Assembly: GCA_963666365.2 (NCBI GenBank)
Contig: CAXXNF010000001.1
Location: 1,056,001-1,120,000 of the forward strand
Direction of reading: 5' to 3'
DNA: 64,000 bases
From: Syntrophales bacterium
GTDB lineage: Bacteria > Desulfobacterota > Syntrophia > Syntrophales > UBA2210
Below are positions 44,234 through 48,446 of this stretch, piece after piece. A program made the translations under genes and the position numbers. The number at the start of each line of letters is the position of its first letter. Position 1 is the stretch's first letter. The notes beneath the pieces are model-generated. The model ran no database searches and was not told the origin of the DNA. It worked only from the letters and a program-made list of their open reading frames with translations.

Positions 44234-44824
44234 TTATTTAAGAAGCAGCGAAGGAGGCAGCTCTTGTACAAACTCGACGGCGAAATGTTGGGGCCCGGAA
44301 CTTCCCTTTGTGTGCCAAAGGCGAATCACTCGGGAACTTCTGAATACTATTGCATCTCCTCGTTCAACCGTCAGAATTATTATATCTTCAGGGCCGAGTA
44401 TGGGCATGCTGCAGGGCTTTCTGACCAGTTGGGCGCCGCCTCGGGAAATGTTTACCACTTCCAGCGTTTCACCGGCTAATCGAACTTGCAAGTCTTGGCA
44501 CGGCTTAATCCGCTGGTATTTCCGAAGATCGCAGGGAGCGCTTTCCGTTATTCTGCGTACCAGTATAGCCGGGAATCCTCTGCCCCGTGTGATGTACCCT
44601 TCGCGCAATTCGTCGATTTCAGCCCAAAAACCGTATCGTGAAAAGTCCCTTCCGGCATCAAAAAATGTTATGAGGATACGCTTGTGCACATAACGTCCAT
44701 CCAGAGGGGGGCGTGTCTGCAGAAGCACCAGCCGATCATCATTTACATCCTGCAGAAAAGACCGGCCTATCCTACCGGCATCGAGCACCACTTCAACTGA
44801 AAGACCCGGTTTCACTGCGTCCAT
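44234..44824 (-). CDS. PilZ domain protein with N-terminal beta-barrel (YcgR-like layout)
   Basis: RKYQR (RxxxR) and NISRGG ([DN]xSxxG) motifs, C-terminal AVEF. Confidence 0.8.
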   Translation of the reverse strand: MDAVKPGLSVEVVLDAGRIGRSFLQDVNDDRLVLLQTRPPLDGRYVHKRILITFFDAGRDFSRYGFWAEIDELREGYITRGRGFPAILVRRITESAPCDLRKYQRIKPCQDLQVRLAGETLEVVNISRGGAQLVRKPCSMPILGPEDIIILTVERGDAIVFRSSRVIRLWHTKGSSGPQHFAVEFVQELPPSLLLK

Positions 44825-44827
44825 TGT

Positions 44828-46531
44828 TTATGATTCCTTATGCAAATGTGACGTAGAACCGTCCTTGTTGAGGTAGGTGAGGATCGCCTGCCGCACTGTC
44901 GGTGGAATCTTGATGCCCATGGCCCTGATCCGGGTTTCATATTTTTCGAATGAACGGGTGTGTCGGGAGGTATTGGCAAAAATCTTCAGATAGGATTGTA
45001 CGCTGCCCTCAAGTTCTGAGCGGAACTCCATATCCTTGTTGAGCATATCCTCCACGGGAGCAATGACCCGGTAGTTGATGGGGCGGCAGATCGAACGGTA
45101 GGCCACGAATCGCTGTGTGTCCTGGCATTCGTAATTTTTTTCCCGGATCGACTTTTCCACTACCCCCAGATCGATGCAGTCGAGTATTTGAAAGGCAAAA
45201 TCCGGTCTCAGAATCTCTTCCAAAATCGCCTCCGCCTTTTTATACTGCCGGCATGTGGTCAATTCTGCATCACCTTCGGTACTGCGTATATAGAGCGCAA
45301 AATCGATGTCGGAACCGGTCTCACAGACACCCATGTTGGTCGAGCCGAGGATATCCATGGCAATATCGTCCTGAACTTTTTCCTCCACGAGCCGTGCAAC
45401 CTGTTCCATCCTGTCTAGACGCTCGTCCGCCTCTTCAGTCTGAAACATCCGATAAAACTGTTTGATCTCGTTGTAAAGCTGAATTTCCGGGATATGAGAA
45501 TACTTCTTGATTTTCATATCGAAGTTCTCCCCGGCCTTCAGAGCCCTGTAGCGGTTTTCGTCTACAATCTCCTCGACCCATTGTCCTTCTCTTGGAAAAT
45601 AGTCGGCAATATCGTATATTCGATTTTCAACCAGCTTTTTAAAAATGATTTTCCTGATTTCACCGTTTTCGATCTCAAGAGAATAAAAAAATCCCCCTTC
45701 AGAAACACCGCCGGTCATAAGCGTTACTTCGCCGAAATTGGAAGGATTCAGATAGAGGGTATCTTCACGAATATCGAACCCCCAGTCGGCATGAATGTGT
45801 CCGGTGAGGCAGGCCTTGATGGGATGGGTATCGCAAAAGGTCCGCAGCGCCGGCGAACCGGACGTACCGAACTGCAACACCCGATCATGAATCCCGTGGG
45901 CCGGTTGATGGGTGACAATGATGTCGGGATTGACGGCCTTGAAGAAAGTGATCATTTCGCTTTGAGATCCGTCGGCGCCCCGGTCGTCCTGATAGCGCAC
46001 TATGTATCGCTCCGGAATGCCCGGGGTCCATATGTCCGCACCGCCATACCCGGCTATCCTTATTCCCTGAAAGTCGTGCCAGTGAAGATGTAGATCCCGC
46101 TCGTGAAGCGAGGTGTATTTCAGATCCATGTCATAATTGCCGGGCAGTGAAAACACGGAAGCCGTCTGCTTTGTGGCGAAAATATTTTCCAGCACCTTGT
46201 ATTTCTGCTGAAGAACCCGCCGGGCGCGGATGGTGTACTGCTGGTATTTGGTGCCTTTTTCTTCTATCTCGGATGACATGTCGGGACTTTCGAGAAGCTC
46301 GTCCACAAAATCCTCGATCAGCATGTGTTCTTTATTCATCTGGCGGCGCAATCCGTAAAAATATGACTGCAGGTCATGGTAGTTGATTGCCGTGTTCATC
46401 GTGTAAAAGGGTATATCAATGAGATCGCCCGTGATAATATACAGGTCTGCCACTGTTTCAGATAAAAGCGTTTTAATTCTTTCAAAGGCGCCGTGGATAT
46501 CTGCCGCGTAAATCATTCTCATACCTGTCAA
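44828..46531 (-). CDS. Calcineurin-like metallophosphoesterase fused to a Pol-beta-type nucleotidyltransferase domain
   Basis: N-terminal DIH, GDLID, GNYD, THQP, GHIH. C-terminal ILGSTNMGVCETGSDIDF matches hGS-x10-DhD. Confidence 0.8.
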   Translation of the reverse strand: MTGMRMIYAADIHGAFERIKTLLSETVADLYIITGDLIDIPFYTMNTAINYHDLQSYFYGLRRQMNKEHMLIEDFVDELLESPDMSSEIEEKGTKYQQYTIRARRVLQQKYKVLENIFATKQTASVFSLPGNYDMDLKYTSLHERDLHLHWHDFQGIRIAGYGGADIWTPGIPERYIVRYQDDRGADGSQSEMITFFKAVNPDIIVTHQPAHGIHDRVLQFGTSGSPALRTFCDTHPIKACLTGHIHADWGFDIREDTLYLNPSNFGEVTLMTGGVSEGGFFYSLEIENGEIRKIIFKKLVENRIYDIADYFPREGQWVEEIVDENRYRALKAGENFDMKIKKYSHIPEIQLYNEIKQFYRMFQTEEADERLDRMEQVARLVEEKVQDDIAMDILGSTNMGVCETGSDIDFALYIRSTEGDAELTTCRQYKKAEAILEEILRPDFAFQILDCIDLGVVEKSIREKNYECQDTQRFVAYRSICRPINYRVIAPVEDMLNKDMEFRSELEGSVQSYLKIFANTSRHTRSFEKYETRIRAMGIKIPPTVRQAILTYLNKDGSTSHLHKES

Positions 46532-46607: not shown

Positions 46608-47408
46608 TTACCCCGGCTCGTTGAACATGGCCGTTCTTCCGCCGTCCACCACAATATCCTGGCAATTGACAAAACTTCCCTCGTCGCTTGCAAGATAGAG
46701 CGCCGCATAGGCGATGTCTTCCGCAAAACCCGCCCGCGGAAGCGGCGTCGCTCTGGCCAGGCTTTTTTTCAGTTTTTCCATCTTCCGTTCGTTCTCTTCC
46801 TGGGAAAGCTCGTTGGCCCTTTCTGAACCGCCCCAGAAGATGGGAGTCGCAATGGCACCCGGCGAAATTGAGTTTACGCGGATACCGAATTGACCAAGTT
46901 CCGCGCCGCACAAGCGGCTCAGGTGGGTGACCGCGGCCTTCGCCACCGAATAAAGATAGGCTCCCTGCTTAATGCGAATCGCCGCAATGCTGGAGGTGTT
47001 GATGATGCTGCCTCCTCCCTGCTTCTTCATTACCGGCACCGCGTACTTTATTCCGAATATGCAGCTTCCCAGAAGAAGGTTCATTCCATGCTCAAAATCC
47101 TCTTGCGTCACCGTCTCAATTGTTCCGCCTGTGCGCCCTCCGGCGTTATTGAAGAGACAGTCCAACCGTCCGAAGCGATCAACCGCCTGTTGGATAATAT
47201 CGCGTATGTCGCCTTCACGGGTCACATCGGCGCGGCAGTACGCCGCCGACTCACCCAGCCTGTCGGCAATTGCGCGCCCTTTCTCTTCCGATCTTCCCGC
47301 AATGATCACACGGGCACCTTCCCGCACGAACAGTTCCGCCGCGGCTTCACCTATTCCACTGGTTCCGCCCGTTATAACAGCTGTTTTTCCTTCCAGTCTA
47401 CCGCTCAT
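46608..47408 (-). CDS. Short-chain dehydrogenase/reductase
   Basis: TGGTSGIG, NNAG, YSVAK. Start is MSGRLEGK at 47408. Confidence 0.92.
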   Translation of the reverse strand: MSGRLEGKTAVITGGTSGIGEAAAELFVREGARVIIAGRSEEKGRAIADRLGESAAYCRADVTREGDIRDIIQQAVDRFGRLDCLFNNAGGRTGGTIETVTQEDFEHGMNLLLGSCIFGIKYAVPVMKKQGGGSIINTSSIAAIRIKQGAYLYSVAKAAVTHLSRLCGAELGQFGIRVNSISPGAIATPIFWGGSERANELSQEENERKMEKLKKSLARATPLPRAGFAEDIAYAALYLASDEGSFVNCQDIVVDGGRTAMFNEPG

Positions 47409-47705
47409 ACCTGCCCTCCTCACACGACGATAGTATGCCACAAAATGCGTACGGTCTTTTTTATAGTATGTTGAGTGTAACAGGTCAATCAAAATGGCGT
47501 GCCTCGTACACATGAATCTATGAATGAGAGAAGACAACTTCTCCCAGAGAAAAGGAGATAACAGTTATTGACAAGAGGGTTCCCGGTTTCGTATAAATTA
47601 GAACCATCCCTTAATATCGGCATTTTCTTTCCGTGGGTGCCTCAGTGATCAATTCGCACATAGCATGGGAAACGTAAGAAATCAGCCGATCAAGGAGTCA
47701 CAGAA

Positions 47706-48446
47706 GTGTTTGACCGCATAATCTCAATCATCTTTCTCTGTTTTATCGGCATCTCTTGCATGATCATGTTCGCAGGAGCTCTGATCGTATGGATGTGCAC
47801 GGTTCTTTTTGACAAAAGGCTCGTCATCCTGCACTATTTTACCTCCTTCTGGGGATCGATATACCTCTGGGCCATGCCTGCCTGGTCGGTATCCGTAGAA
47901 GGGAAGGAACGCATCGGAAAGAAAACCTATGTCGTTGTCTCGAATCATCAATCACTGCTCGATATACTCGTCGCCTTTCGCATTTTTTTCCCCTTCAAGT
48001 GGGTATCCAAGGCGGAAATATTTAAGATACCCCTTGTCGGATGGAACATGACCTTAAATCGCTACATCAAACTTGTGCGGGGAGACAGCAAAAGTATACG
48101 CAGTATGCTTGAGGACTGCAACAAAGCCCTCGCCGGGGAAAGCTCGGTATACATGTTCCCCGAGGGGACCAGGTCGGCCACAGGAATCGTAAAACCCTTC
48201 AAGCCGGGGGCCTTTGTCCTGGCTCATGACAACAAACTTCCCATTTTGCCCATTGCCATCGACGGCACCAAAGACGCCCTTCCTAAATACAGTCTGAATT
48301 TTCACGGTATCCACAGAATTAGAGTAAAGATCCTCGAAGAAATCCCTTATACATCATTCGAAAAGATGACTGTCGATGAAACGGCCGCCATGGTGCGCGC
48401 GCGCATAGTGGATGCGATAAAACTCTTAAGAAAGACATCTCGGTAA
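47706..48446 (+). CDS. plsC: 1-acyl-sn-glycerol-3-phosphate acyltransferase
   Basis: NHQSLLD and FPEGTRS motifs. Confidence 0.88.
   Translation: MFDRIISIIFLCFIGISCMIMFAGALIVWMCTVLFDKRLVILHYFTSFWGSIYLWAMPAWSVSVEGKERIGKKTYVVVSNHQSLLDILVAFRIFFPFKWVSKAEIFKIPLVGWNMTLNRYIKLVRGDSKSIRSMLEDCNKALAGESSVYMFPEGTRSATGIVKPFKPGAFVLAHDNKLPILPIAIDGTKDALPKYSLNFHGIHRIRVKILEEIPYTSFEKMTVDETAAMVRARIVDAIKLLRKTSR

Follow-up and report, generated by a model that had tools for sequence, protein, structure and literature searches.

A conserved phosphoesterase–nucleotidyltransferase fusion family with a PilZ protein as an occasional neighbour

Does a gene that joins a phosphoesterase to a nucleotidyltransferase (NTase), and that is followed after 3 nucleotides (nt) by a PilZ gene, belong to a dedicated nucleotide signalling module, or does it encode an enzyme that stands on its own? 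The question is raised by a 64,000-nt stretch of DNA from a Syntrophales bacterium (assembly GCA_963666365.2, contig CAXXNF010000001.1, positions 1,056,001 to 1,120,000 of the forward strand; the whole stretch is called the window hereafter), in which a sequence-only reading had proposed such a module. Our analysis showed that the fusion is a member of an uncharacterised, conserved family of probably bifunctional enzymes and that PilZ is an occasional, not a fixed, partner. The fusion is real, both of its catalytic sets are conserved, it has no fixed partner, and its halves can also be encoded by adjacent genes. We consider it probable that the fusion is a self-contained, competent bifunctional enzyme that is independent of PilZ.

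The fusion gene was listed as an open reading frame (ORF) of 567 amino acids (aa) at 44828–46531 on the minus strand, from a TTG at 46531 to the stop codon at 44828–44830. Every feature of this gene and of the PilZ gene given below lies on the same strand, and residue numbers follow the 567-aa ORF with its TTG start throughout. The true start is probably the ATG at 46522 rather than the listed TTG, since homologues align from residue 4 onward and a GGAG sits 11 nt 5′ of that ATG. The listed ORF start is thus probably 9 nt too far upstream (window 46522–46531).

The N-terminal half (residues 4–330; 45542–46522) is a calcineurin-like metallophosphoesterase domain, as identified by Pfam Metallophos and Foldseek. 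The five motifs read earlier from the ORF were all found in place (D11-I-H13, G35-D36-L-I-D39, G131-N132-Y133-D134, H208 and G244-H245-I-H247), and the two-metal ligand set is complete (D11, H13, D36, N132, H208, H245 and H247). Pfam Metallophos (PF00149) matched residues 4–248 with E 1.1e-8 and 36.2 bits, above its cut-off of 21.5, and of the 121 full-length members in the alignment, 115 retain the whole metal-ligand set. The His of GNH[DE] in calcineurin-like enzymes is a catalytic acid or transition-state residue. The window protein departs from the PF00149 superfamily at this position with Y133, a replacement that had been noticed before; Tyr together with the full ligand set was present in 112/121 members and His in only 3, so that Tyr is the family norm. 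The long helical insert was likewise recovered between motifs II and III (residues 45–119; 46175–46399), where DSSP analysis of the model gave helices 45–64, 72–81 and 87–119 and the predicted local distance difference test (pLDDT) score of the block was 91–97.

The full-length AlphaFold2 model, obtained with an alignment of 24 sequences, had a pLDDT of 88.1 and a predicted template-modelling (TM) score of 0.84. When it was compared with the PDB by Foldseek, the N half dominated the matches. The best was aq_1956 (2yvt; E 9.9e-12, TM(target) 0.69), with TT1561 (1uf3) at E 1.5e-7 and further matches to MPPED2, Rv0805, UshA, Mre11, GpdQ and Dbr1. Foldseek probability was 1.00 for 2yvt, 1uf3, MPPED2, Rv0805, UshA and Mre11, indicating a calcineurin-like fold. 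A profile search of PDB sequences gave a local MPPED2 match (E 1.6e-4), and the PDB sequence search with the N half alone gave no useful match. Free-standing N-half homologues match Pfam Metallophos_3.

The C-terminal half (residues 340–567; 44831–45514) was assigned as a Pol-beta-type NTase domain with a C-terminal helical subdomain on the basis of Pfam matches under cut-off, a structural model and VIA-align. The Pol-beta motif that had been pointed out in this half, LGSTNMGVCETGSDID, occupies residues 395–410 (45302–45349) and contains the NTase signature L395-G396-S397...D408-I-D410. A candidate third catalytic carboxylate, D451 (45179–45181), was invariant in alignments A1 and A2 and lies on strand 447–454 of the model, where the third carboxylate is expected. 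Conservation of GS/DxD in homologues had been set beforehand as a test of the assignment, and the GS/DxD/D451 set, the signature of Pol-beta NTases, was kept in 114/121 aligned full-length members. The helical subdomain (residues 455–553; 44873–45169) has near-invariant columns, its conserved residues being R474, F475, Y478, R479, R483, S527, K530, Y531 and R534, and the RFYRRSKYR pattern was present in 110/121 members.

At the profile level the C half scored under every cut-off: 25.5 bits (E 1.5e-5) against 27 for Pfam MTPAP-like_central, 16.2 against 21 for NTP_transf_2 and 15.2 against 26.9 for Polbeta. MTPAP-like_central is precomputed for most homologues, and the free-standing C-half homologue P0197 reached 26.6 bits with NTP_transf_2 (cut-off 21). 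The NCBIfam search gave no match better than E 0.048, and the ESM Atlas yielded nothing beyond generic NTP_transf_2 clusters and the free-standing C half of the family itself.

The C half was also modelled alone (residues 325–567, alignment of 37 sequences, pLDDT 90.4). The leading Foldseek rows for this model were all Pol-beta NTases, namely DrrA, HI0073, MNT/MntA, TUT7, CutA, ANT/AadA and GlnE. VIA-align, which is independent of Foldseek, gave Pol-beta-fold NTases in its top 13 rows with Z 5.1–6.2; the tool cautions that matches with Z below 8, as all of these are, may reflect a common arrangement only. GlnE (Z 6.2, 180 residues aligned) and DrrA (6.2) were followed by archaeal MNT (6.1, within an MNT/MntA range of 5.5–6.1), AAD(9) (6.0) and HEPN-MNT (5.8); the cGAS/DncV-like NTases (CD-NTases) CdnB and CdnE gave Z 3.6–4.4 and SpoT 3.7. 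By its motif and probably by its predicted fold, the C half is a Pol-beta NTase that appears nearer to adenylyltransferases than to CD-NTases and belongs to no curated subfamily. The proposal that this half is a Pol-beta NTase with a third acidic ligand is thus supported, the model matching only such NTases, at a modest Z ≤ 6.2, and D451 being invariant.

A word-indexed search returned more than 600 fusion homologues of 63–96% identity, which, where they carried a name, were called 'metallophosphoesterase' or 'Icc-related'. In an exhaustive search of 50%-identity representatives, 328 matches were obtained; about 25 were full-length, down to roughly 30% identity, and the remainder included free-standing N halves (~310–350 aa) and C halves (~220–235 aa). 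The fusion was found in 33/61 sampled genomes of the window's order (28 of them strong), and the family in 23/401 sampled genomes of its phylum and in 145/401 sampled Spirochaetota genomes (E ≤ 1e-20; some of these matches are one half only). Conservation extends across Syntrophales, other Desulfobacterota and Spirochaetota; in the Syntrophales and Spirochaetota loci drawn from genome contigs, the fusions are 57–81% identical to the window protein. No description of the family was found in the full-text literature, including PMC12943098, in a search that was mostly at abstract level.

The two halves are separable. A split form of the family occurs in spirochaetes, and the halves were adjacent genes in 2/3 split loci fetched (L207:3287-4965 on the minus strand and L209:4081-5759 on the plus strand, in genomes of ~4 Mb), where they are flanked by an unannotated 229-aa ORF and a 140-aa ORF and then by recG. 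The third locus, L208, yielded no C half at E 1e-8.

The tree of the family separates four clades. Clade I contains the window protein and members 57–81% identical to it with both halves intact; clade IV, at 32–36% identity to the window protein, also has both halves intact. In clade II the NTase motif is degenerate in 6/7 sequences and the phosphoesterase is intact. Clade III, which belongs to Spirochaetota by source names, shows the converse, with the phosphoesterase degenerate in 6/7 sequences and the NTase intact. The decay is therefore reciprocal, each catalytic set being lost in its own clade. It is most complete in the clade II locus L189, in which the gene (L189:4023-5039, minus strand) encodes a 338-aa phosphoesterase-only protein that has lost the NTase domain and is 49% identical to window residues 4–336. 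Several genomes hold two paralogues from different clades. The half-dead clades are natural separation-of-function variants.

Because the two halves are conserved together, can be separated and decay each in its own lineage, we read them as two activities that cooperate, and probably oppose each other, on a single substrate. By analogy with known write/erase enzymes, the phosphoesterase and the NTase would be the eraser and the writer of one nucleotide phosphodiester linkage. A parallel in logic is SpoT/Rel of the RelA/SpoT homologue (RSH) family, whose single polypeptide combines an NTase-fold synthetase with a hydrolase that works against it. Among RelA/SpoT paralogues, some lack one of the activities and some the other, a pattern that clades II and III resemble. 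The hydrolase of SpoT/Rel is an HD domain, whereas that of the fusion is calcineurin-like, and SpoT matched the C half with Z 3.7 only; no HD, RelA_SpoT, TGS or ACT match was found in the fusion with Pfam or NCBIfam, so that it is not a member of the RSH or GlnD families and the resemblance is one of logic only. SpoT/Rel and GlnD are central to bacterial stress and nitrogen signalling, and the fusion has the same logic with another hydrolase fold.

What, then, is the place of the PilZ protein? Its gene (44234–44824) encodes a two-domain protein of 196 aa, and the junction reads ...AAGGAATCA TAA ACA ATG, with the fusion stop at 44828–44830, a 3-nt spacer at 44825–44827 and the ATG at 44822–44824. 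The intact motifs and the 3-nt spacing reported earlier were both borne out by the sequence. RxxxR is R101-K-Y-Q-R105 (44510–44524) and was invariant in 7/7 sequences; [D/N]xSxxG is N125-I-S127-R-G129-G130 (44435–44452), with S127, G129 and G130 invariant in 7/7. Pfam PilZ covered residues 100–190 with 21.4 bits, just below the cut-off of 22.5, and the homologues in L081 and L185 scored 36.3 and 33.3 bits. With both motifs intact, the protein is a candidate receptor of cyclic di-GMP (c-di-GMP). An AAGGAA resembling a Shine-Dalgarno (SD) sequence lies within the 3′ end of the fusion gene (44834–44839), 9 nt before the PilZ start codon. This SD-like sequence and the 3-nt spacer make it almost certain, as far as sequence can tell, that the fusion and the PilZ gene are co-expressed in the window. 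Like YcgR-type PilZ receptors, the PilZ protein of the window has an RxxxR and [D/N]xSxxG domain after an N-terminal domain of ~95 residues; it differs from them in belonging to a narrow subfamily and in having no flagellar context.

Linkage to PilZ in other genomes, which the sequence-only reading had taken as a test of itself, was not upheld. Neighbourhoods were surveyed in 210 loci including the window, drawn from genome contigs, whole genomes and metagenomes and holding at least 3 duplicate pairs (L033/L105, L034/L106 and L048/L107). The gene order about the fusion was highly variable, and a PilZ-subfamily gene adjoined the fusion in only 4/210 loci, for which reason PilZ was rejected as a universal partner. 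These four represent three lineages: the window with its nearest relative L001 (fusion 81% identical; PilZ downstream with a gap of ~280 nt), L185 (clade I, 64% identical; PilZ gene convergent, 49 nt from the fusion) and L081 (clade IV; PilZ gene downstream after 18 nt). The PilZ proteins beside the fusion align across both of their domains and belong to one subfamily, which is narrow (6 clusters found). A PilZ homologue was detected by tblastn in 1 of the first 80 loci, and Pfam detected PilZ in 1/42 representative downstream ORFs. The PilZ subfamily was present in 21/61 genomes of the order, mostly with one match each, and where a genome of the order held both fusion and PilZ subfamily the two were adjacent in 2/12 cases.

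A second link to c-di-GMP was seen in clade II: in 9/9 loci where the DNA continues for at least 600 nt beyond the fusion, the gene immediately downstream, on the same strand, encodes a GAF-G[A/G]DEF protein. Clade II members are only 35–45% identical to L086 and their other neighbours differ, and the GGDEF link is kept nonetheless. It persists in L189, where the GGDEF gene (L189:2889-3998, minus strand) follows the NTase-less phosphoesterase after 24 nt. The motif of these cyclases is GADEF in 7/9 (L086, L087, L088, L104, L113, L183 and L189) and GGDEF in L110 and L111. Elsewhere, a PAS-HD-GYP protein gene lies directly downstream of the fusion in L030, a Cache-PAS-GGDEF gene lies upstream and divergent in L041, and HD-GYP genes occur 2.4–3.6 kb upstream of the fusion in two sub-lineages. 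As a further observation, the divergent upstream neighbour of the clade II fusion in L088 (L088:5627-7252, plus strand) encodes a type II/IV secretion ATPase that carries MshEN, a c-di-GMP-binding module.

We judge the link of the fusion to c-di-GMP signalling to be facultative but real, recurrent and more than chance, because clade II has kept it over deep divergence and because three lineages share one rare PilZ subfamily beside the fusion. Of the nucleotide signalling module as first proposed, the two-domain architecture, the intact motifs and a facultative c-di-GMP link have stood, and the fixed PilZ partner has not. The facultative pairing with PilZ, GAF-G[A/G]DEF and HD-GYP offers an entry point to what may be another c-di-GMP route or output.

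The explanation that we place first, tentatively and short of calling it probable, is a nucleotide messenger. From nucleoside triphosphates the NTase half would make a guanine-nucleotide signal of the c-di-GMP/pGpG class, which the phosphoesterase half would hydrolyse. In the window lineage the translationally coupled PilZ protein would read c-di-GMP and either sense that pool or gate the enzyme; in clade II a GGDEF writer would have displaced the NTase writer, the eraser being kept. We infer both the contact between the PilZ protein and the fusion and the identity of the substrate. Displacement is suggested because the NTase decays, up to loss of the domain in L189, where a GGDEF gene is present, and it is this interpretation of the decay as writer displacement that ranks the messenger first. 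The PilZ subfamily beside the fusion in three lineages and the HD-GYP protein in L030 count in its favour, as does the low background of c-di-GMP genes in the window genome, which has 4 GGDEF, 5 HD_5, 2 Pfam-level PilZ and 0 EAL matches in 4.0 Mb; five other genomes have 8–14 GGDEF and 3–21 HD_5 matches. The nearest characterised structures of the N half also favour it, since MPPED2, Rv0805 and GpdQ act on small nucleotide diesters.

Several results weigh against a messenger of this kind. The fold evidence, which comes from the C-half model, leans towards adenylyltransferases of proteins or small molecules, GlnE, DrrA, MNT and ANT (Z 5.2–6.2) being nearer than the CD-NTases (Z 3.6–4.4), with every VIA-align Z under the warning level of 8; the C-half model also had no Foldseek match at E ≤ 1e-3, the best being E 0.056. 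The GADEF partner of clade II may not be a standard diguanylate cyclase and may be non-canonical or of altered specificity, and no RxxD was found within six residues before the GADEF/GGDEF motif in the clade II cyclases. Clade II genomes are rich in HD-GYP genes (3–21 matches) and therefore do not lack a phosphodiesterase. Beyond clade II, a c-di-GMP gene was seen beside the fusion in no more than 5 of ~170 loci with context. In clade III, 0/5 loci with downstream DNA have another eraser or a c-di-GMP neighbour, and the prediction that phosphoesterase-dead members adjoin another eraser failed in these loci, three of which have an EngB-like GTPase gene in that place. The 61 genomes of the order divide into 12 with both fusion and PilZ subfamily, 16 with the fusion only, 9 with PilZ only and 24 with neither, so that the two are hardly correlated; the co-occurrence odds ratio of ~2 is, among related genomes, not informative. 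Loci of the P0124 type had a c-di-GMP neighbour in 0/10 cases.

The same fold evidence is what best serves the first rival, a nucleotidylation cycle under c-di-GMP control, in which the NTase would add a nucleoside monophosphate to a protein or a small hydroxyl-bearing molecule and the phosphoesterase would remove it. The PilZ protein would then be a c-di-GMP-dependent adaptor, regulator or substrate, and the dead NTase of clade II a nucleotide sensor fed by its own cyclase. GlnE (Z 6.2), DrrA (6.2), MNT/MntA (5.5–6.1) and ANT/AAD (5.2–6.0) rank highest among the structures that the C half matched, and DrrA and MNT/HEPN complexes top its Foldseek list. GlnD offers a precedent of an NTase and a hydrolase that act on one protein target, and two-domain PilZ proteins are commonly c-di-GMP-dependent adaptors. 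These Z-scores are modest, however, and in most loci no conserved candidate target gene adjoins the fusion. L189, which lost the NTase domain and kept its GGDEF partner, is awkward for a domain that serves as a sensor, and we know of no metallophosphoesterase that acts as a de-AMPylase. We regard the cycle as possible and rather doubtful.

The relation to characterised nucleotidylating enzymes is likewise partial. The fusion shares the G-x11-D-x-D signature with GlnD, GlnE, DrrA and MntA, and GlnE, DrrA and MNT are the best fold matches of its C half, but it has no Pfam or NCBIfam match to these families. GlnD couples nucleotidyl transfer with removal; the eraser of the fusion is of a different fold.

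If the C half is read instead through its best Pfam match, the palm of mitochondrial-type poly(A) polymerases (PAPs) and terminal uridylyltransferases (TUTases) (the MTPAP-like_central match at E 1.5e-5, precomputed for most homologues), the fusion would heal and tail RNA 3′ ends: the phosphoesterase would open a 2′,3′-cyclic phosphate or remove a 3′-phosphate, and the NTase would add untemplated nucleotides. TUT7, CutA and TUT4 are in the Foldseek list, and the CCA-adding enzyme with an HD domain and the Pnkp phosphoesterase module are precedents for the principle. Some clades also have translation-linked neighbours. An EngB/YihA-like GTPase gene (~193 aa) follows on the same strand, 8–16 nt downstream, in three clade III loci (L190:5660-6241, L191:3475-4053 and L192:2611-3210), that is, in 3/3 such loci after a phosphoesterase-dead, NTase-intact fusion. 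A BipA/TypA GTPase gene is directly upstream on the same strand in clade IV (L081:1730-3553, with a gap of 3 nt, and L082:1521-3410), TrmO is near L193 and L195, and MnmE is upstream in L051. On the other hand, no RNA-binding domain was detected in the fusion with Pfam or NCBIfam; the TUTase and PAP matches rank under GlnE, DrrA and MNT, as Mre11 and Dbr1 do under the small-diester phosphodiesterases; and the GGDEF and PilZ links would be left unexplained. RNA repair is thus unlikely.

No better placed is the view that the PilZ adjacency means nothing in the window clade, the substrate of the fusion being an unrelated one and recruitment to c-di-GMP signalling having happened in clade II alone. 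It would account for the 131/135 clade I loci (those with 600 nt or more of DNA downstream) in which no PilZ-subfamily, GGDEF or HD-GYP gene lies within seed reach, for the otherwise highly variable neighbourhoods and for the PilZ gene of L001, which at ~280 nt is not coupled. Against it stands the recurrence of one narrow PilZ subfamily next to the fusion in three lineages, where chance adjacency is very unlikely given that only 21/61 genomes of the order have the subfamily, usually with one match. The 3-nt spacing and internal SD, which indicate co-expression in the window, also speak against it. We consider this view improbable, at about the level of RNA repair.

Two further candidates were rejected. 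A role of the phosphoesterase as the missing c-di-GMP phosphodiesterase was dismissed on the HD-GYP-type genes, with 3–21 matches per genome, although EAL was absent from 4/5 genomes checked. A defence system was dismissed since PADLOC gave a PDC-S10 match only, with no CD-NTase or other system, and there was no defence-island context. The match of the phosphoesterase half (residues 111–266) to this candidate-defence model had E 2.3e-14; PDC-S10 was also matched by the L086 member (E 2.6e-15) and weakly by P0126 (E 8.7e-5).

The most specific form of the messenger explanation, and a long shot by our estimate, goes further on both halves. The NTase would be a new synthase of c-di-GMP or a related guanine dinucleotide, neither GGDEF nor CD-NTase, and the calcineurin-like half would add a third class to the cytoplasmic phosphodiesterases of that messenger, with the GAF-GADEF protein having displaced the NTase in clade II and PilZ acting as a dedicated reader in the window lineage. 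CD-NTases, the cGAS/DncV-like enzymes of cyclic-oligonucleotide-based anti-phage signalling systems (CBASS), share the Pol-beta catalytic core with the fusion, and by the title of PDB entry 6wt8 some of them make c-di-GMP. They are a weaker fold match (Z 3.6–4.4), PADLOC gave no CD-NTase match, and no effector operon or Cap-type neighbours were seen at fusion loci; none of the tests run marks the fusion as a CD-NTase.

Among known phosphoesterases, the N half is structurally most like aq_1956 (2yvt) and TT1561 (1uf3), which are 'Icc-related' metallophosphoesterases (Pfam Metallophos_3). Unlike the fusion, aq_1956 and TT1561 are single-domain proteins without an NTase half, and no functional study of either was found in the part of the literature searched. 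The class III cyclic-nucleotide phosphodiesterases and their relatives, among them MPPED2, Rv0805, GpdQ and CpdA, share the fold and the metal-ligand motifs; the Foldseek matches to this group had E 4e-7 to 4e-6. The fusion family differs from them in its Tyr for the GNHD His (112/121), its 75-residue helical insert and its fused NTase.

Some other neighbours were recorded as context. In the window, a short-chain dehydrogenase gene (46608–47537, minus strand; adh_short_C2, E 2e-57) ends 85 nt before the probable fusion start; it is also found upstream of the fusion in L001 and is absent there in other loci. Lnt (apolipoprotein N-acyltransferase) is encoded directly upstream on the same strand in the spirochaete clade I loci L053, L058 and L073. 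A PlsC-type acyltransferase gene lies two genes upstream of the window fusion and divergent from it (47706–48446, plus strand), and the PlsC Pfam family also occurs directly downstream of two clade III members (L193:765-1517 and L195:1808-2560), which may be a coincidence. The ORFs downstream of the fusion in L020, L021 and L044 look spurious. In one Desulfobacterota family, an ORF of ~200 aa that resembles a lipoprotein, with no Pfam match and no similarity to PilZ, follows the fusion in 5/6 loci (L095, L099, L100, L101 and L103); DUF362 comes next after it in L099 and L101, and L102 has DUF362 close to the fusion.

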